Shown here: positions 8,871 through 52,083 of the stretch, piece after piece
How positions within the stretch are numbered: position 1 is the first letter of the stretch
Layout of the letters: every line of letters starts with the position of its first letter
NCBI GenBank assembly: GCA_964454265.1
Contig: CAYVXD010000002.1
Coordinates: forward strand, 888 to 64,887
Reading direction: 5' to 3'
Source: an uncultured Candidatus Sumerlaeota bacterium
GTDB taxonomy: Bacteria > Sumerlaeota > Sumerlaeia > MWCT01 > JAUWMI01
DNA length: 64,000 nucleotides
Notes under the pieces: model-generated
What the model was told of the DNA's origin: nothing
Seen by the model: the letters and a program-made list of their open reading frames with translations, nothing else
The model's database searches: none
Made by a program: the position numbers and the translations under genes

Positions 8871-10430
8871 ATGATTATTCACCGACGTGCAGCTCGTCAG
8901 GTTAAAGTTCGTGCCGTTATTGACACAGCAGTTTTCCGCGACAAGGGATTGGATAGCCTCGATCCCATCGCCTGTATTATCGGAGCACGTATTGTGGCTG
9001 ACTGTGCCGCCTTCGTTTATACGAATGCCGTTATCTCCGTTGTAAACGCAGGTATTGCCGCTGACTGTGCTGTTATCCCATGCATCGATTCCATCGTCTC
9101 CGTTGTTAGTGCAGATATTGCCGGTCACTGTGCCGTTGACACTCGAATCGATTCCATCCTCTCCGTTGTTATTGCAGATATTACCGGTGATCATACAGTC
9201 CCTGTTTGCTATGATTCCGGAACCACCATTGTTGTAACAGCGCAGGGCATCAAATTGGGATTTCTCTGCCACACCAGCGTGAATTCCGCTCCCCCGCCAG
9301 TCGCGCACGGTGCCATTGCGGATGGCAATGTTATATTGGGCACCGTTGACATAGATGCCATGGCCAGTGGTCCCTGCTGCTTTGCCAGGCCCAATTAATG
9401 CGTGACCGTTCAGGTCCAGCGTGACATTGTCGGCATCAATAGTGATGCCATTTGTGTTCTGCGTAGCCAGCGTGAGGTCGCCAGTCAGGCGATACATTCC
9501 GGGCTGGGAGATGCTGTAGGGCAGCTCGCTTATGAGAATATCCAATTGATTGTCCGCTACCGCATCCACCGGTGTCGTGTTTCCGATCAAGGTGTTCCCT
9601 GAGACGATATTGTCAGCACCGTCAAGGTCCAGCCCGCGGTCATTATCCGTACAATGATTATCGCTAATACGATTGTCAGAACCAGTAGCGAGTATGCCAG
9701 CACCATCTCCTCCACTGCCGTTCGAGTCGCAGGTATTATCCACTACCCGGCAATCACTCGACACCTGTATTCCATCGCCGGTGTTACTCTGGCAGGTATT
9801 GCCGCTGACCGTGCAGCCTTCGTATGTATGGATGCCGTCGCCTGTATTACTACTGGAGGAATTGCCGGTAACTGTGCTGCCATTCCATGCAAATATGCCG
9901 TTGCCTCCGTTTTCACGGCAGGTATTGCCGCTGGCAATGCTGCCATGGCGTACATTGATGCCGTAGTCTTCGTTAGCTCTGCAGATATTGCCGCTGACTA
10001 TGCTGCAAGCGCCTGTAATGATGCCACCGATACCGTTGTTATAACATCGCAATGCCTCAAACTGACAGTTTTCGGAGAGTATGGCATTAACCCCATTCCA
10101 CTGCCAGTCGCGCACGGTCCCATTGCGTACGGCAATGTTGTATTGAGCTCCGCTGACCACGATTCCAGTGCCATATCCCCCTGCTGCTTTACCAGGCCCG
10201 ATTATCGCATGCCCGTTCAGGTCCAGGGTGACATTGTCCGCGTCAATAGTGATGCCATGCGTATTAGTCTGGGTTGTGGATAGGTCATCAACTACAATAT
10301 ATGAACCGGAGCTGGAGATGGTGTAAGGAATCTCTGCGATGTCAATCTGCCCATCACCAGCCCAGGCAGCTGCCCCCAGCAAAAGACACAAACCAAGAAT
10401 ACAAGCCGTTGTTGTGATACGTCGTTTCAT
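8865..10430 (-). CDS. Secreted right-handed parallel beta-helix (PbH1/NosD-like) repeat protein with an internally duplicated module
   Basis: 521-aa ORF with a signal peptide. The module NVTLDLNGHA(I/L)IGPGKAAG...YNIA(V/I)RNGTVRDW occurs twice, at about aa 65 and aa 335. The rest is many G-N-x-C-x-x-N-x-x-DGI turns. Confidence 0.85.
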   Translation of the reverse strand: MKRRITTTACILGLCLLLGAAAWAGDGQIDIAEIPYTISSSGSYIVVDDLSTTQTNTHGITIDADNVTLDLNGHAIIGPGKAAGGYGTGIVVSGAQYNIAVRNGTVRDWQWNGVNAILSENCQFEALRCYNNGIGGIITGACSIVSGNICRANEDYGINVRHGSIASGNTCRENGGNGIFAWNGSTVTGNSSSSNTGDGIHTYEGCTVSGNTCQSNTGDGIQVSSDCRVVDNTCDSNGSGGDGAGILATGSDNRISDNHCTDNDRGLDLDGADNIVSGNTLIGNTTPVDAVADNQLDILISELPYSISQPGMYRLTGDLTLATQNTNGITIDADNVTLDLNGHALIGPGKAAGTTGHGIYVNGAQYNIAIRNGTVRDWRGSGIHAGVAEKSQFDALRCYNNGGSGIIANRDCMITGNICNNNGEDGIDSSVNGTVTGNICTNNGDDGIDAWDNSTVSGNTCVYNGDNGIRINEGGTVSHNTCSDNTGDGIEAIQSLVAENCCVNNGTNFNLTSCTSVNNHP

Positions 10431-45972: not shown

Positions 45973-46125
45973 TAGCGGTATTCCTCCCACGCAGCCTGCC
46001 GGCACGGAACTATACGTTTACCACAAGTTGAAATGTTAGCAAGCCAAAGACTCAACGCAAGGGAAAAGTTGCAGACGCACATTGAAAGAATTGTTGTAAC
46101 CATAGCTGACTAAGAGCCCGCTATT

Positions 46126-46342
46126 GCTCTGTTGAAAACCTTAGACCATACAAAAGAGGATATTGAAAATGATGGGTTCGCCACCTTGACGTAGCACGGG
46201 CGTCTCGCCCGTGTGGATTGACAACTATGGCACAAAGATCATCCGCCTAGGCGGATGCCACGTTATCAGAGCCACATTGACACTCCAAGTAGAATGGCGG
46301 TTCGATTTATTTCTGGCAGGATGTAAGGCTTTTCAACAGAGC
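46126..46342. repeat. MITE-like element: 17-18-nt terminal inverted repeats enclosing two GC hairpins
   Basis: The terminal repeats are gctctgttgaaaacctt (46126..46142) and aaggcttttcaacagagc (46325..46342). The internal hairpins are CACGGGCG-tct-CGCCCGTG (46195..46213) and CATCCGCCTAGGCGGATG (46240..46257). Confidence 0.5.
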
Positions 46343-46468
46343 ATGCGTCTGTAAAAAAAGGATTGATTTTACGGATGCACAATGACATAAAATTATAACG
46401 TAATGCTGTCGCGGAAGGGCCTGATTCGTCTCAGCCTTTTCCATCCTTCCCTTGAGTTGACCAGTTGT

Positions 46469-46545
46469 CGGGGCGTAGCGCAGTTGGCTAGCGCGCAGCG
46501 TTCGGGACGCTGAGGTCGGGGGTTCAAGTCCCCCCGCCCCGACCA
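46469..46545 (+). tRNA. tRNA-Pro (anticodon CGG), CCA encoded
   Basis: A manual cloverleaf folds cleanly. Acceptor CGGGGCG/CGCCCCG, D stem GCGC/GCGC, anticodon stem CAGCG/CGCTG with loop TTCGGGA, T arm GGGGG-TTCAAGT-CCCCC, discriminator A plus CCA. Total 77 nt. Confidence 0.95.
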
Positions 46546-46668
46546 GATGCAACTTTGCGAATTTATGGGGTAATATGGCAGAAGATATTTATAAATGCTT
46601 GTGAGAAAGCAAAAATACAAAAAACAGTAACAGTCCATGCCCTCAGGCATAGTTTTGCAACCCACCTT

Positions 46669-46693
46669 CACGCCGGAGGCGCATTTTCAACTT
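46669..46693. repeat. Left copy of a 25-nt perfect inverted repeat inside the recombinase remnant
   Basis: cacgccggaggcgcattttcaactt is the exact reverse complement of 46741..46765. Confidence 0.95.
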
Positions 46694-46740
46694 GAGTGCG
46701 GAACTGACCTGAGGTACATTCAAGAGATTTCAGGGCATAA

Positions 46741-46765
46741 AAGTTGAAAATGCGCCTCCGGCGTG
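46741..46765. repeat. Right copy of the 25-nt perfect inverted repeat
   Basis: Reads aagttgaaaatgcgcctccggcgtg. Confidence 0.95.
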
Positions 46766-46892
46766 CAGTAAGACTACCGAAATCTATACGCAAGTGAGCA
46801 CTAAAGATATTGGAAGAATCAAAAGTCCACTGGATAGTCTGAATATAATCAAGGGGCGTAATAAGTGACAAAATTTGTCAATGCGAAGGGGA

Positions 46893-46992
46893 CCTCTGGT
46901 TCAGCCAGAGGGAGGTATATCCGAACATAGTTCGTCTATACCTCCAACTTAGGCGGATATCCGAACTCGGTTCGCATGTGAACGAGTTAGAT
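46893..46992 (+). promoter_or_regulatory. Structured attI-like/operator-like region upstream of the ATPase gene
   Basis: It opens with the hairpins CCTCTGG-ttcag-CCAGAGG and GGAGGTATA...TATACCTCC. Two direct copies of ATATCCGAAC-N3-GTTCG follow, at 46917 and 46957 (40 nt apart). A perfect GTTRRRY core (GTTAGAT, 46986..46992) closes the region. Confidence 0.45.
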
Positions 46993-47106
46993 GCAATTGG
47001 ACAGGAAATAACACTGAAAAGGAAAATGCTGCGTGATGAGGAAAAACACAAAATTGGTAACAAGGTGTGGGAGAGTGTATCAAAAAGATGAACTTTCAAG
47101 GGGGAT

Positions 47107-48408
47107 GTGATGAGAGAAGGCATTGTTGATAGGGTAAAGAGAGAAAGAGAAACCTATTTCAAGGACAGATTTGGGTTAAAATCAAATCCCTTTATATTAT
47201 CTCCTTACGGTGATATCAAGAGACTTGCAAGAGTATTTGTGGATAGAAAAGAAGAAATTGAAAGGGCAGTTGTTACATGTTTAGAAGAGCCTCGGAATAT
47301 CCTTGTCTATGGCATGTTTGGAATTGGAAAATCTGCTTTCATTCTCAAATTACTTTATGAATTTGCTAAGGCAACATATATTCGTTCCCTCACATCGTAT
47401 GGCTATATAGGAGAGGCTACTCCTAAAGGCTTTGTTGCCCAAGCATTGTTGGGTTTGGCTACTTCTCTGACTGGAAATGGAAAAGCAGAGCAATACAAAA
47501 AGACGCTACTGGGTACCAGTAGAGTTAAAGAAATAGAAAAAGAAATAAGCGGAGAGATCGAAGGTGGAGTATTAGTGATGAAGGGGAAAGGTGGTGGAAA
47601 ACTTGCATTTACATCTGCAGAAATAATAGAGACAAATCTAGACCAGTTAAAACTACAAGCCATGTTTAAAGAACTCGTAAAAATATCAAAGCACAAAGCT
47701 GACCGGATAATAATTGCGATTGATGAAATGGATAAGCGAAGCGCTGCGAAAGTCCAGGAAATTATTGCGGAATGTAGAGGTTTACTGCACGAGTCCGTTT
47801 CGTTTATACTAACTACCTCCTTAAGAGCCATGATCTACAGAGCAGATGAACTTGGCAAGAAATTAGATGATATTTATTCCACTTTTTATGGTGCATTTGA
47901 TGAGAAAATCGAAATAAAGCCCTTCTCTTTAGCTGACTTATCTACATTTGAAGAATTGGTTGAGAAATCTTTAGGATCAGTAAGAATTTCCGGATTCGAA
48001 AAGGGAATAGTTCCATTCACTAACGACGGAATTGAATTCATAGCTAAACGGAGCCACGGAGTTCCCCGAGTGTTCAACCGAATATGTAGAGATGTACTTG
48101 ATACTGCTTGGCGTTTAAAGCTTGAACAGATCAATTCGGCGGCTGTTAAGTATTGCTTCAGGGTAAAAGGGAAAGAAATTTTAGAAAGTTTACCTAGAAA
48201 ACAACGAAAACTTATCGATTTAATAAATGAGCGAGGGGGAACACTAGAAAGAGTAGATGATAAGCTTGTTACAAAATATAAAGCAAAAAATAAACAGGCA
48301 GTTTACAGGCAACTTGGTTTTTTGGTACAGAACGATAAGATAATAAAAATAGAAACAGAAGAAGGCACAAATTATGAAGTGATACCCGAAATCAAGGAAG
48401 TAACATAG
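47107..48408 (+). CDS. AAA+ ATPase (Orc1/Cdc6- or ExeA-like P-loop) with C-terminal winged-helix-like domain
   Basis: 433-aa ORF with an N-terminal FGLKSNPF...FVDRKEEIE. Walker A is GMFGIGKS, Walker B is RIIIAIDEMD, and there is a sensor-like SFILTTS. The C-terminal ~80 aa (QRKLIDLINERGGTLERVDD...YRQLGFLVQNDKIIK) look wHTH-like. The probable start is the ATG at 47110. Confidence 0.8.
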   Translation: MMREGIVDRVKRERETYFKDRFGLKSNPFILSPYGDIKRLARVFVDRKEEIERAVVTCLEEPRNILVYGMFGIGKSAFILKLLYEFAKATYIRSLTSYGYIGEATPKGFVAQALLGLATSLTGNGKAEQYKKTLLGTSRVKEIEKEISGEIEGGVLVMKGKGGGKLAFTSAEIIETNLDQLKLQAMFKELVKISKHKADRIIIAIDEMDKRSAAKVQEIIAECRGLLHESVSFILTTSLRAMIYRADELGKKLDDIYSTFYGAFDEKIEIKPFSLADLSTFEELVEKSLGSVRISGFEKGIVPFTNDGIEFIAKRSHGVPRVFNRICRDVLDTAWRLKLEQINSAAVKYCFRVKGKEILESLPRKQRKLIDLINERGGTLERVDDKLVTKYKAKNKQAVYRQLGFLVQNDKIIKIETEEGTNYEVIPEIKEVT

Positions 48409-48486
48409 AGGGGGGGAGTGTATCATAAATAGAGATAGGCAAAAAGCAAGCAGCAAAAATTTTGCAAGATTTGGACGACCAACTGC

Positions 48487-48560
48487 ATCTAACACGGGCT
48501 TTGCGGCTTACTGCATTCTCTCAAATGCTTCGCACTTCGTAAAGCCCAAGAACGTTATAT
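48487..48560 (+). other. attC-like element A (74 nt)
   Basis: R''-like ATCTAAC, stem GGGCTTTGCG/CGTAAAGCCC, and R'-like GTTATAT. It is homologous in layout and partly in sequence to element B. Confidence 0.45.
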
Positions 48561-48576
48561 GAAATTGCTATGATAC

Positions 48577-49533
48577 ATGGGGGAAATTATGTTAGCTTTG
48601 TTTCTTGGAGCCGGCTTTTCTAAGTGGGCTGCAAATTTACCGGTGGCCAGTCAGTTCTTTGATTTTAACGTTGAACCTTCGGGGCCACGTGAGCTTAAAA
48701 AATTGGAGATTGTAAGGTCGTTAAAACATAATTGGGACAAATCACACCCGTATGGGCTTAGCGAACAATTCATTGTAGATGCATTGAAATTTGAGGAGAA
48801 AAAGAAAGAGGCGGTTCTTTGGTATATTGTTCGTAGGCTTTCGGAACCATTTATTTGGAAAGAATATCATGCACAGAAATGGCGCAGACATGTTTTGATG
48901 ATTGATGAAAATCGCAAATACGATAGACCAGGAGTCATTCAAGCACAAAAGTTTCTTAAGAAATATTCGACCCCATCTTTAGCTGGTATCATAACCACGA
49001 ATTATGATATCCTTGTTGAATATGCGCTTGGGACAAAGGGATTCAACTACGGTATCCCTAATCAAGCGCTTACAGGTCGAGGGCCGTATCCCGTTTCTCA
49101 GTGGAAAAATCCCGTTATACTAAAAGGCAATATCCCGATAGCGAAAATTCATGGTAGTATTTCATGGGATGAACATAATCAATATACAGATGGGAGGCAT
49201 GGTTTGACAGGTCATGCTTTGATTGTGGCACCAACGCCCGAGAAAGAATCATCAGAATCTTTGAGATTTGTTTGGAACTTGGCTAAAGAAATTCTCAGAA
49301 AAGCCACACGAATCATTGTTTTTGGGTTTGCATTTAACCCTTACGACACTTCCGTTCTGAATTTTCTAAAATCTGAAGGTAAGAACTTGGAGTCTGTTCT
49401 CTTGGTGAATATAGGATCCAACACTGAGGCGGCACGTATTCTGTGGCCACGCGCTAAAATTGTATCGACAATGCCGCCACCAGATGGGAATAAAGAGATG
49501 CAAAATTGGCAGAAGAAATGGCTAGGAATATGA
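48577..49533 (+). CDS. Stand-alone SIR2-like (SIR2_2/ThsA-type) domain protein, putative NADase effector
   Basis: 318-aa ORF with LFLGAGFS at the N-terminus, ITTNYD (catalytic Asn) and KIHGSISW (catalytic His). The probable start is the ATG at 48589 (GGGGGA lies 4 nt upstream). Confidence 0.8.
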   Translation: MGEIMLALFLGAGFSKWAANLPVASQFFDFNVEPSGPRELKKLEIVRSLKHNWDKSHPYGLSEQFIVDALKFEEKKKEAVLWYIVRRLSEPFIWKEYHAQKWRRHVLMIDENRKYDRPGVIQAQKFLKKYSTPSLAGIITTNYDILVEYALGTKGFNYGIPNQALTGRGPYPVSQWKNPVILKGNIPIAKIHGSISWDEHNQYTDGRHGLTGHALIVAPTPEKESSESLRFVWNLAKEILRKATRIIVFGFAFNPYDTSVLNFLKSEGKNLESVLLVNIGSNTEAARILWPRAKIVSTMPPPDGNKEMQNWQKKWLGI

Positions 49534-49543
49534 GCCCAATTTC

Positions 49544-49619
49544 ATCTAACAGCATGTTTACGGTTCGCTACGCTCACCCAAATGCTTTCGGCACTTCGCA
49601 AACACGCAGGACGTTAACC
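49544..49619 (+). other. attC-like element B (76 nt)
   Basis: R''-like ATCTAAC, stem GCATGTTTACG/CGCAAACACGC with 2 mismatches, and R'-like GTTAACC. The central caaatgctt..gcacttcg is shared with element A. Confidence 0.45.
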
Positions 49620-49818
49620 AAATTTGATATTGCCATTTTATGGGTTCGCAAAGCGTTTTAAGTGCGAGCATTTCCTGCCTTAAAATCCAGTAGCCGGGTA
49701 TGCCTTCCTGGTTTCATTAAGGGCCTTCTGCACCTGTTAATTGTGTTGAATTGCTGCGCCTATAATGACTATGGCTTGAAAGGTGATCCTTCCCCTTCAC
49801 TTTGTTCAGGGTCAGGAT

Positions 49819-49850
49819 GAGGGGTCGGGGGTAGAACTCCCCGACCCCTC
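49819..49850. repeat. GC-rich hairpin
   Basis: Reads GAGGGGTCGGGG-gtagaact-CCCCGACCCCTC (12-bp stem). Confidence 0.85.
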
Positions 49851-50067
49851 AATTATTTGCGTCAAGTGGCCAGTTAATCATTTGACATTTTCATATAGAT
49901 TGCCATGATGGTTGCGATTATCTGAATTGTTTACGATTCACGTTTTTGCAATAGAGCATTGGAAATCCCTCAAGCCAATCGCGTAAAGCCGCTTTTTCAG
50001 CGTGCGTTTATTAGATCGAGCAGGGATAGCCATAGGCTGAGAGTATCCTTGGTTTTAATGTGAATCC

Positions 50068-52083
50068 ATGGAAGAAAATGATCAGATAATTGCCCTGCAT
50101 GAGGCACGGGAAGGCACGGTTCCGGTATTACCTATTGCGCTTGGCTTTGCGCTTTCTGTAGTTTTGCTGCTCAACATCTACCTCAGTTCGCCCGATTCTG
50201 CCGCATACTACAGTGTGCCGCGTTCAATTCTAATTGATCACGATCTGGATTTTCAAAATGAGTATTTGTACTTCGAATTTCAACCCAATATGTTTTACCT
50301 CACAGGGCATCAACGCCTTTCGAATGATTGGCCGATTGGCGCAGGGCTGCTCTGGTTGCCTTTCTTTATACTCGCCCATCTTCTTGCGTTAGCCCTTTAC
50401 CTGCCCGGCATGCTCCCGAATGGTTATAGCACGGTTTACCAGCTGGTCGTGTCGCTGGGGATTGTGATATATGGATTATGCGGCCTTGTGCTGAGTTTCC
50501 GATTTGCACGCAGGTACGTTTCGGATCGCTCTGCATTATTCGCTGTAGGATTGGTAGTGTTTGGCTCGCCGCTGGGATTCTACCTTTACTATTACGACTT
50601 TATGTCACATGTGGTCTCGTTTTTTGCCATTTCGCTTTTTCTTTATCTCTGGGTGAGCACGTATCGCACGCGAACACTCCGGCAGTGGGGCACCCTCGGT
50701 CTGGTAGCGGGTTTGATGACGATGGTGCGGCCTCAGAACGTCTGTTTTCTTGTAGTCATTGTAGTCGAATATGTGATGGTGCTGCGCCGTGAGCTCCTGA
50801 GCAACAGCGCGGCGTTGAAGCACTACATAAAGGGGATCATGCTGCTGATTCTGGGCCTGGTAGTCGGTTTTCTGCCCCAGATGCTTTTCTGGCTTACCGT
50901 CTATGGGAGTCCAATTGCGTTTCCCAAGATGGAGGAAATGCACTGGTTCAGGCCCCGGGTGTGGGCCATGCTCTTTTCGCAATATCACGGACTGTTGGCG
51001 TGGTCACCAATCCTGATGCTAGTCTTGCCAGGACTGTATTTTATTTACAAGATGGAGAAGCCGGTTGGGGTGGCGCTCAGTCTCGCGCTGGTGATTCAGA
51101 TGTACCTGAACAGCGCGAATGAGGTCTGGTGGGCAGGGGGATCGTTTAGCAACCGGCGATTTGCTGACTATGCGTTTATTTTTGTTCCTGCGATTGCCCT
51201 TATGGTGCACAGAAGGCGAGGCCCGCTGCTGCCAATATTGTGCGTGGTTCTTGCCGCTTGGAACTGGCTCTTAGTAATTGCTGAGCGTGCTGGCGTGCTG
51301 ACATTGGATCATTTTGTTCCCTGGACAGGTGAATTCTGGCGCTCGCTGGTAGGATTGGCTATAGATCCGTTGCGCAGCTTTGGCGCAATGATCGGCAACT
51401 TCGGAGACGTCGCGATTCTCAGTCGCGTGCTTATTGGCATTGTTTTTGGAGCAGTAGTGTTCCTGGTCATTTATTTCTTTCAGAGACAAAAAAGGCACAA
51501 TCAATTGGCGAACATCGGCTCTGGATGTCTGATGGCCTATACCGTGCTTTTGGGCCTGAGCTTCATTGTTCTCATCCCCAATACCAGACCGATTGAGGCC
51601 GAGACCTTTTCCTATCAACTCTCTCGGACAAACCGCGTCCTGTGGAACAACTACTACGAGTACGGCTACTACTTGCTCATGAAACGCAAATACGACGAGT
51701 CAATCAGGGCATATGAAAAGGCTGTGACCTTGTGGCCGGAGCGTCCCTATGCCTACCGGTATCTTGGCACAAACTACTACCTGCTGGGACAGTATCGTCT
51801 GGCAGCTCAATATTGCCGTGAGGCGCTTGCTATTGACCCGGAATACCAGTCAGCAGCCCAATATTTGGCCGCGTGTTACAGGGCCATTCTAGCAGAAGAG
51901 CCGCAGAACCTGGCGCTGATGCTGGGGCTCGCGCGACTCTACAAACAGCTAGGCAACCTTGAACGATCAGAGATGCTATATCAGGAAGTATTAAGGCAGA
52001 ACCCGAACAATGCGACAGCACAGGAAGGAATTGCTGCAATCCGTACAAAGAAGAAAATCAGGCAATTCCCAGTCCAACCGTAG
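50068..52083 (+). CDS. Polytopic membrane protein (glycosyltransferase-39/PMT_2-like) with C-terminal TPR repeats
   Basis: 671-aa ORF with about 12 TM segments followed by TPRs (YDESIRAYEKAVTLWPERPYAYRYLGTNYYLLGQY...). Confidence 0.65.
   Translation: MEENDQIIALHEAREGTVPVLPIALGFALSVVLLLNIYLSSPDSAAYYSVPRSILIDHDLDFQNEYLYFEFQPNMFYLTGHQRLSNDWPIGAGLLWLPFFILAHLLALALYLPGMLPNGYSTVYQLVVSLGIVIYGLCGLVLSFRFARRYVSDRSALFAVGLVVFGSPLGFYLYYYDFMSHVVSFFAISLFLYLWVSTYRTRTLRQWGTLGLVAGLMTMVRPQNVCFLVVIVVEYVMVLRRELLSNSAALKHYIKGIMLLILGLVVGFLPQMLFWLTVYGSPIAFPKMEEMHWFRPRVWAMLFSQYHGLLAWSPILMLVLPGLYFIYKMEKPVGVALSLALVIQMYLNSANEVWWAGGSFSNRRFADYAFIFVPAIALMVHRRRGPLLPILCVVLAAWNWLLVIAERAGVLTLDHFVPWTGEFWRSLVGLAIDPLRSFGAMIGNFGDVAILSRVLIGIVFGAVVFLVIYFFQRQKRHNQLANIGSGCLMAYTVLLGLSFIVLIPNTRPIEAETFSYQLSRTNRVLWNNYYEYGYYLLMKRKYDESIRAYEKAVTLWPERPYAYRYLGTNYYLLGQYRLAAQYCREALAIDPEYQSAAQYLAACYRAILAEEPQNLALMLGLARLYKQLGNLERSEMLYQEVLRQNPNNATAQEGIAAIRTKKKIRQFPVQP

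Follow-up and report, generated by a model that had tools for sequence, protein, structure and literature searches.

What kind of DNA lies between two short repeated motifs beside a proline tRNA gene of an uncultured Candidatus Sumerlaeota bacterium, and how did it come to be there? The locus is contained in a stretch of 64,000 nucleotides (contig CAYVXD010000002.1, positions 888 to 64,887), hereafter called the window, and had been described in an initial annotation as an AT-rich island whose boundary motif combines a direct 8-mer, possibly an attachment (att) core, with 9-mers proposed as terminal inverted repeats. What that description had missed is the nature of the island: the DNA between the motifs is a decayed integron-type cassette array with a dead recombinase and two defence-like genes. 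The motif pair itself is a non-random structure, for which coincidence is very unlikely. With about as much confidence as doubt, we propose that it marks the place where an integron fragment was inserted into the centre of a 9-8-9 palindrome located 7 nt after tRNA-Pro.

Integron cassettes between the two motifs

The locus was compared among Sumerlaeota alleles, of which the window, L002, L017 and L025 carry the block (occupied), while L001 (= L019), L018, L020 and L021 do not (unoccupied). Samples with occupied alleles include SRR24270826 and JGI 3300022542. Two further loci, L008 and L010, served for comparison of the recombinase and of the site that follows it. The features of the window are listed below, with ORF standing for open reading frame.

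46469..46545, + strand: intact tRNA-Pro gene (anticodon CGG), CCA-ended (ARAGORN; Rfam RF00005, 66.7 bits)
46553..46561, + strand: left 9-mer CTTTGCGAA, proposed left arm of a split palindrome in the target DNA, identical in L002 and L017
46562..46569, + strand: left copy of the 8-mer TTTATGGG, the junction repeat, 10 nt before the first base of recombinase homology
46579..46868, + strand: tyrosine-recombinase pseudogene remnant, comprising the last ~75 residues with two frameshifts and the natural stop TGA at 46866-46868 (Pfam PF00589; three-frame translation)
46666-46693 / 46741-46768, no strand assigned: 28-nt near-perfect inverted repeat inside the remnant (DNA fold -37 kcal/mol, z -8.3)
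46869..46989, + strand: attI-like platform, strongly structured (fold z -4.7), ending in GAACGAG|TTA, with the crossover at 46986|46987
46987..48554, + strand: cassette 1, consisting of ORF 47107-48408 and attC1
48487-48493 and 48554-48560, + strand: R'' box ATCTAAC and R' box GTTATAT of attC1
48555..49613, + strand: cassette 2, consisting of ORF 48577-49533 and attC2
49544-49550 and 49613-49619, + strand: R'' box ATCTAAC and R' box GTTAACC of attC2
49614..49636, + strand: first part of the constant distal segment (all post-crossover sequences aligned)
49637..49644, + strand: right copy of the 8-mer TTTATGGG, kept in L002 and L025, and TTTCTGGA in L017
49645..49653, + strand: right 9-mer TTCGCAAAG, proposed right palindrome arm, followed by CGTTTT
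49654..49869, + strand: tail present in occupied alleles only; homology with the unoccupied allele resumes at 49870

The block is identified as integron-derived because the fold of its attC sites covaries, the attC half-site profiles are specific, its attI-like end is shared with L008 and L010, and its cassettes differ between alleles. Each ORF is followed on its 3' side by one attC site of 74-76 nt, the R' box of which belongs to the next cassette; both R' boxes are near the consensus GTTRRRY without matching it exactly. Six attC sites taken from four loci share a common stem, in which 10 of the 16 pairs show compensatory changes, and the bottom strands of the sites fold with the R' and R'' boxes closing the stem. 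In the window the half-site profiles match only attC1 and attC2, apart from a weak 3'-half match at 9008-9035, which was set aside as ordinary coding-like sequence. In addition, the first ~14 nt of each cassette are complementary to the 5' end of its own attC; for cassette 1, the repeat search paired the start GTTAGATGCAATTGG with the attC 5' end CCAACTGCATCTAAC. An Rfam scan of 46000-50200 returned the tRNA only.

Cassette 1 encodes a P-loop nucleoside triphosphatase (NTPase) of 433 aa, KAP/AAA_16/STAND-like, for which all Pfam matches are weak and only KAP_NTPase exceeds its cutoff. The 318-aa product of cassette 2 is SIR2-like, being matched by Pfam SIR2_2 and by several PADLOC SIR2 models (best 2.8e-12). 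As the two proteins are encoded in separate cassettes, they need not form one system.

The recombinase remnant upstream of the cassettes is 87% identical to the database protein P0001. A tblastn comparison with the recombinase of L010 covers residues 172-246, starting from 46579, and DNA homology to L008 begins at 46580. Across its two frameshifts the remnant reads ...QKIFINACEKAKIQKTVTVHALRHSFATHL / LECGTDLRYIQEISGHKS / SKTTEIYTQVSTKDIGRIKSPLDSL...; no second recombinase copy was found elsewhere in the window, and neither the ORF list nor Pfam nor tblastn revealed an intact integrase or transposase between the motifs. The idea that TTTATGGG itself represents recombinase codons (IYG) was rejected, as the motif encodes RIYGVIW where the family consensus is HITTRTV, and homology is found only from QKIF onwards. 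The GAACGAG|TTA-type ending of the attI-like platform is also present in L002, L017, L008 and L010, and the sequence diverges right after it.

Both the remnant and the platform contain further inverted repeats. The arms of the 28-nt repeat correspond to two ~23-nt insertions, which cause both frameshifts and bracket the correctly oriented coding segment between them. Because L017 has the right arm only, with near-natural coding sequence at the position of the left arm, the latter is read as a later inverted copy; in L002, the region 46649-46749 has been deleted between CCTC repeats. Within the attI-like region, a hairpin with 16-bp arms (GGAGGTATATCCGAAC...GTTCGTCTATACCTCC, 46911-46945) is also present in the unrelated L008 and absent from the closer alleles L002 and L017. 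This hairpin may represent a repeated attI-like module gained or lost by slippage between ATATCCGAAC repeats.

Alleles with and without the array

The compared alleles differ in the following way.

Window: occupied, 3324 bp, with the NTPase and SIR2-like cassettes
L002: occupied, 2401 bp, with the same flanks and motifs, encoding a protein without known identity and a trypsin-like peptidase
L017: occupied, 1985 bp, more distant (flanking genes at 81-84% nucleotide identity), with the same truncated recombinase, an identical left motif and one methyltransferase cassette
L025: right end only, with a different last attC followed by the same constant tail and an intact right motif
L001 (= L019), L018, L020 and L021: unoccupied, with an identical 109-bp filler and no motif word

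The cassettes are unrelated among the window, L002 and L017, while the flanks are common to all three. The occupied alleles diverge right after GAACGAG|TTA, and the divergence ends at G|TTAAyy. Judging from these breakpoints, gene content has since changed only at internal G|TT points (attI-like x attC, and attC x attC) and not at the outer motif, a feature that had escaped the initial annotation. As one and the same truncation junction is common to alleles with different cassettes, the turnover of cassettes requires catalysis in trans. The distal segment is constant across the window, L002, L017 and L025, despite the different attC that precedes it; its first ~12 nt resemble the 5' end of a cassette (TTAayyrAATT), and the right core follows 11 nt further on. 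From this alignment, the segment probably represents the distal end of the inserted fragment, in truncated form.

Beyond the right motif, the tail of the window holds a remnant of ~85 nt (49762-49846) of an insert resembling a miniature inverted-repeat transposable element (MITE), including a 14-bp GC-rich terminator-like hairpin (49818-49851). In L017 (~1845-2030) the MITE-like insert measures ~170 nt and is flanked by duplicated AATTATTTG, and it is absent from L002, L025 and L001.

The unoccupied haplotype was recovered in four contigs from different samples (L001, L018, L020 and L021), which carry the same 109 bp between the tRNA and the downstream anchor CCAGTTAATCATTTGAC. No copy of TTTATGGG or CTTTGCGAA is present in this filler, and the homology of L001 to the window stops at the last base of the tRNA, 46545. 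A hint from MAFFT that the filler might be a diverged island tail was rejected, since the local alignment was no better than shuffles. According to the initial annotation, an empty site should read tRNA-Pro plus one copy of the motif; the only unoccupied haplotype has none, which is not decisive, as the L001 haplotype is not a clean empty site. The haplotype may have lost the island secondarily, or it may preserve the original condition of a clade into which the island was imported later. Loss in the L001 lineage is suggested by the outgroup L017, which carries the island. The constant parts of the island are 87-90% identical between the window and L017, compared to the lower identity of the flanking genes given above, and this pattern of divergence would fit a spread of the occupied tRNA-downstream region by recombination in the flanks.

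A second repeat was noticed around this region. The last bases of the tRNA, CGACCA(G) (46539-46545), recur before the downstream anchor AAACGACCAGTTAATC in L001, L002 and L017, and the equivalent in the window (49863-49869) is mutated to GTGGCCAG. The CGACCA(G) repeat thus flanks both the island and the 109-bp filler. It may be an older att-like repeat lying further out, or it may recur here by chance; on the + strand of the window the 7-mer has seven occurrences.

A metagenome scan with the flanking protein returned short contigs only, none of which reached the site. The contigs L015, L016 and L024 end at or inside tRNA-Pro, and L026 spans the wrong end of the gene. The independent metagenome assemblies L015, L017 and L024 break in or beside tRNA-Pro, as would be expected of co-existing strains with different arrays. 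No exact protein match was on record for either flanking gene or for P0145. In L016, a tRNA-SeC predicted by ARAGORN at 300-400 lies within the 351-aa flanking gene and is almost certainly a false positive.

Origin of the motif pair

The left composite motif CTTTGCGAATTTATGGGG (46553-46570), composed of CTTTGCGAA, TTTATGGG and a G, starts 8 nt past the CCA end of the tRNA, and the right composite motif TTTTATGGGTTCGCAAAG (49636-49653) is composed of a T, TTTATGGG and TTCGCAAAG. The initial annotation was exact in these positions, in the direct 8-mer and in reporting TTCGCAAAG as the reverse complement of CTTTGCGAA, and it rightly placed the AT-rich cargo between the motifs (GC content 0.36-0.43, versus ~0.50 in the flanks). 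The inverted repeats (IR) formed by the 9-mers are located outside and the direct repeats (DR) formed by the 8-mers inside, giving the order IR-DR ... DR-IR. Taken alone, TTTATGGG occurs twice in the 64-kb window, against 1.9 occurrences expected, and CTTTGCGAA three times, against 0.85 expected. The joint geometry (X9-Y8 ... Y8-revcomp(X9)) is found once in the window, at these very positions, compared to a mean of 0.1 per shuffled window. As this geometry is unique and both copies lie within ~10 nt of junctions set independently by homology (recombinase homology begins at 46579-46580, and cassette-type 5' sequence extends to ~49626), the pair is regarded as non-random. The 20 nt located 5' of both cores match in register at 12 of 20 positions, starting from the ACCA of the tRNA (empirical p ~0.001), with 10 of 20 matching in L002 and 9 of 20 in L017; the 12/20 match fits either an extended junction microhomology or an att-like identity block. 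Both motifs are unchanged in L002, as are the left motif in L017 and the right motif in L025. What stands of the att-core interpretation is that a non-random pair bounds a foreign block, with the 8-mer as the junction repeat; a crossover core, a target duplication and microhomology could all have produced it.

In the scenario that we propose, the target would have been the palindrome CTTTGCGAA-TTTATGGG-TTCGCAAAG (unsplit CTTTGCGAATTTATGGGTTCGCAAAG, followed by CGTTTT), positioned 7 nt past the tRNA and perhaps forming a weak terminator hairpin. The inserted fragment of 3.1 kb would begin midway in a recombinase gene, take in the attI-like site and all of the cassettes, and end ~20 nt inside one more cassette. 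The 9-mers would accordingly represent the arms of the target palindrome and the 8-mer its centre, now present on both sides, either because it was doubled by a duplication at insertion (a staggered break or crossover region), or because it reflects junction microhomology with a similar sequence at the end of the incoming DNA. At the insertion junction the recombinase would already have been dead in the common ancestor of all occupied alleles, and later cassette turnover would need a recombinase supplied in trans. Candidate routes are the capture of a linear fragment at a hairpin break, with the 8-mer and the imperfect upstream match serving as microhomology, a staggered cut with fill-in, and the action of an Xer-like enzyme at a lox/dif-like 9-8-9 site.

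Several features argue for such an insertion. The 9-mers are better read as target arms than as the element termini previously suggested, because the order IR-DR ... DR-IR is the reverse of the order in which target site duplications (TSD) enclose terminal inverted repeats (TIR), that is TSD-TIR ... TIR-TSD. Recognisable integron sequence ends at most 10 nt from the left core and ~11 nt from the right core. Both ends of the block are truncated features, the recombinase having lost its 5' part and the last cassette start having no gene behind it, as a captured fragment would show. The reconstructed site forms a stem of 10 bp closed by a loop of 4 nt (-15.6 kcal/mol within 56 nt of context), followed by CGTTTT.

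Other observations weigh against this proposal. The unsplit palindrome was not found in any genome by the genome and metagenome scans, which were aimed at synteny, and scans of the viral collection gave zero matches to the intact palindrome, to the element ends when joined, or to either half of the motif. The only unoccupied haplotype is without the palindrome and the tail and has the unrelated 109-bp filler instead, so at least one extra event has to be assumed. The reconstructed hairpin barely beats shuffles (z -1.7, 12/200), and it is followed by four U only, after a 2-nt gap, which makes for a weak terminator. Finally, the right motif of L017 has drifted to TTTTCTGGATTCGAAAAG, with three changes that are not compensated on the left side, and it thus gives no sign of selection on the pair. 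The motif pair behaves like a decaying one-off insertion scar rather than a working recombination site. The pre-insertion state was not observed, and we therefore infer the unsplit palindrome and the enzymatic route; the anatomy, flank conservation, variable cassettes and junction positions can be read directly from the alleles.

According to one rival explanation, the unsplit 9-8-9 sequence was the attB site of an Xer-like tyrosine recombinase, with two inverted binding arms on either side of an 8-bp crossover region, and was recombined with the C-core-B site of a circular element in the way that integrative mobile elements exploiting Xer recombination (IMEX) act on dif; since it shares the split-palindrome anatomy with the insertion scenario, it differs from the latter only in the enzyme. 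IMEX integration leaves at either junction one arm from the target, the centre and one arm from the element, and the geometry A-core-B ... C-core-A' observed here is exactly that of integration at a two-arm site. The recombinase family of the island is Xer-like, scoring above the NF040815 cutoff and aligning contiguously to XerA structures, and on the element side 5 of 9 positions of the left arm agree with the target arm, beside the 12/20 match of the upstream 20 nt. However, the right arm on the element side, GTAATATGG, agrees with the target arm at 3 of 9 positions only, joining the ends would put the crossover in the middle of the recombinase gene, the 5' half of which is nowhere in the island, and neither a joined nor an excised form of the element was found in the viral-collection scan. 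Moreover, we know of no dif site to which the split site shows sequence resemblance. On these grounds we consider an Xer-type integration unlikely, though it retains an appreciable chance. A split integrase of the Sulfolobus spindle-shaped virus (SSV) type was excluded by hand, as the frame before the right core reads a stop followed by PNLILPFYG, with no N-terminal recombinase sequence.

The model of the initial annotation, which takes the 8-mer for the att core of an island integrated at a tRNA and the 9-mers for the terminal inverted repeats of that island, draws on direct repeats beside tRNA 3' ends being typical of integrase islands and on the imperfect extension of the repeat to the tRNA ACCA; if the L001 haplotype is naive, both motif copies came with the inserted DNA, as this model would have it. 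We nevertheless hold it to be improbable: inverted repeats outside direct repeats are not element termini bounded by duplicated target, an intact integrase or transposase is absent, the unoccupied haplotype is without a single motif copy, and the repeat takes in only 4 nt of the tRNA. As to the criteria for a transposon, no transposase ORF was found, and by eye the block ends share only the 6-nt ATGGCA/TGCCAT at different offsets. The arms might also be relics of a degraded attC, representing its two halves. Similar words do occur in the attC stems (CTTTGCGG ... TTCGTAAAG in attC1 and TTCGCAAAC in attC2), and in the repeat search the region of the right motif aligned at 15 of 21 positions with the 5' half of attC2, but the pairwise similarities between attC and motif are not significant (p 0.09-0.13), the attC-half profiles recover attC1 and attC2 and not the motif regions, even at E = 10, and attC crossovers take place at the GTT of R', at the base of the stem, and not in the loop; this highly improbable origin was rejected as unsupported. 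Coincidence, in which two short unrelated matches happen to abut, was left open by the initial annotation. Each word alone is indeed at or near chance, one such 9+8 pair would turn up somewhere in ~10% of random 64-kb sequences, and the boundaries had been specifically searched for repeats. Yet the unique joint geometry has both its copies ~10 nt from independent junctions, for which the rough joint chance (0.1 x ~50-nt windows) is far below 1e-5, and the additional in-register similarity upstream (p ~0.001) makes a chance origin one to which we attach hardly any weight.

Recombinase family and relation to known systems

The remnant in the window does not cover the region specific for the integron integrase IntI, and the presence of the corresponding insertion was judged from fuller-length relatives. 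These are without the ~40-residue IntI-specific segment (I2 helix) near patch III. The recombinase of L010 has 17 residues where VchIntIA (PDB 2a3v) has 59, resulting in a two-block alignment, while the relatives align unbroken to archaeal XerA-type structures. Against TIGR02249 the relatives score 217, with a cutoff of 265 and profile positions ~180-235 skipped, and against NF040815 they score 229, with a cutoff of 220. The latter family is named "site-specific tyrosine recombinase/integron integrase" by NCBI, which implies that its curators had already noted the link between attC and this recombinase. The I2 helix of IntI (Messier and Roy 2001, cited in PMC9668308) is seen as the novelty that underlies the recombination of single-stranded attC (PMC7790495).

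Members of this family were found directly upstream of attI-like sites and attC arrays in at least three unrelated settings, namely Sumerlaeota chromosomes, the metagenomic L010 and a Chryseobacterium plasmid. In L010 the recombinase (157-1189) is co-oriented with the cassettes of a long one-directional array of at least seven attC sites, and both in L008 and in L010 the recombinase gene is followed by an attI-like ..ATGAAyGAG|TTA. On the plasmid (L027; NZ_CP041688.1, 6413-10700), a full-length member of 347 aa (WP_143853951.1), annotated with the NF040815 family name, stands ahead of small genes in the same orientation, with attC-like sites between them. From these gene orders it might be suggested, tentatively and with more doubt than conviction, that the array was built by an I2-less Xer-like family active on attI-like and attC sites.

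All 120 best database matches to the remnant (P0001-P0120) are short ORFs of 78-164 aa, some of them on contigs of 100-800 kb, and many start at the same internal Met (MLIYSAGLRVSEV). The L010 gene contains an in-frame TAG (650-652) between its SAM-like and catalytic parts. The short ORFs and the TAG could be due to pseudogenisation on a wide scale, to a ranking that favours short targets, or to recoding.

Clusters of attC sites lacking an integron integrase (CALINs) have an integrase pseudogene nearby in only 15 of 279 cases, and their mobilisation in trans has been proposed (Cury et al. 2016, PMC4889954). The array is a CALIN with a neighbouring integrase pseudogene. It shows two attC sites, in which R''/R' boxes enclose a covarying L''/L' stem, promoterless single ORFs in one orientation, an adjoining recombinase pseudogene, and a strain-variable cassette content that implies mobilisation in trans. 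It is unlike other CALINs in that the pseudogene, from an Xer-like family lacking the IntI-specific insertion, reads in the same direction as the cassettes, and in that a conserved attI-like site persists and the block is bracketed by a split palindrome beside a tRNA.

With classical integrons the array has in common the order recombinase, attI and cassettes, the crossover at G|TT, the complementarity of the cassette start to its own attC 5' end, and a cargo that includes defence-type genes. It differs in the recombinase of the relatives, which is without the IntI-specific segment, and in the gene reading towards the cassettes and not away from them. With only ~75 codons left, two frameshifts and a co-oriented remnant, it is not a classical integron.

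The split palindrome invites comparison with two other kinds of element. Some insertion sequences (IS) insert, with target duplication, into the loops of palindromic repeats or terminators, as do IS1397 and ISKpn1 in repetitive extragenic palindromes (REP/PU). Such elements likewise leave the hairpin arms as inverted repeats lying outside short direct repeats, but the island has no transposase and no element inverted repeats, the insert being a truncated integron fragment. IMEX elements integrate at dif via Xer recombinases (PMC7790495). They share with the locus a two-arm palindrome with a short centre and the IR-DR ... DR-IR order, whereas the site here bears no similarity to dif and is beside a tRNA and not at the replication terminus, the arms of the element match poorly, and the locus lacks a complete element. 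The split palindrome looks like a tidy scar, and not like a new kind of element.

What appeared to be a tRNA island with att-like ends is thus really a dead integron platform, the gene content of which turns over at internal attC/attI-type sites. It provides an example of how CALINs can arise and persist as strain-variable defence-gene slots in an uncultured phylum. If the I2-less family is active on these sites, cassette capture would be possible without I2, and many orphan CALINs would belong to a recombinase that has gone unrecognised. The 9-8-9 palindrome at tRNA-Pro could then be an Xer-type site integrating whole platforms. The association of this family with attC arrays, if it holds, bears on the evolution of integron recombination from Xer-like ancestors.

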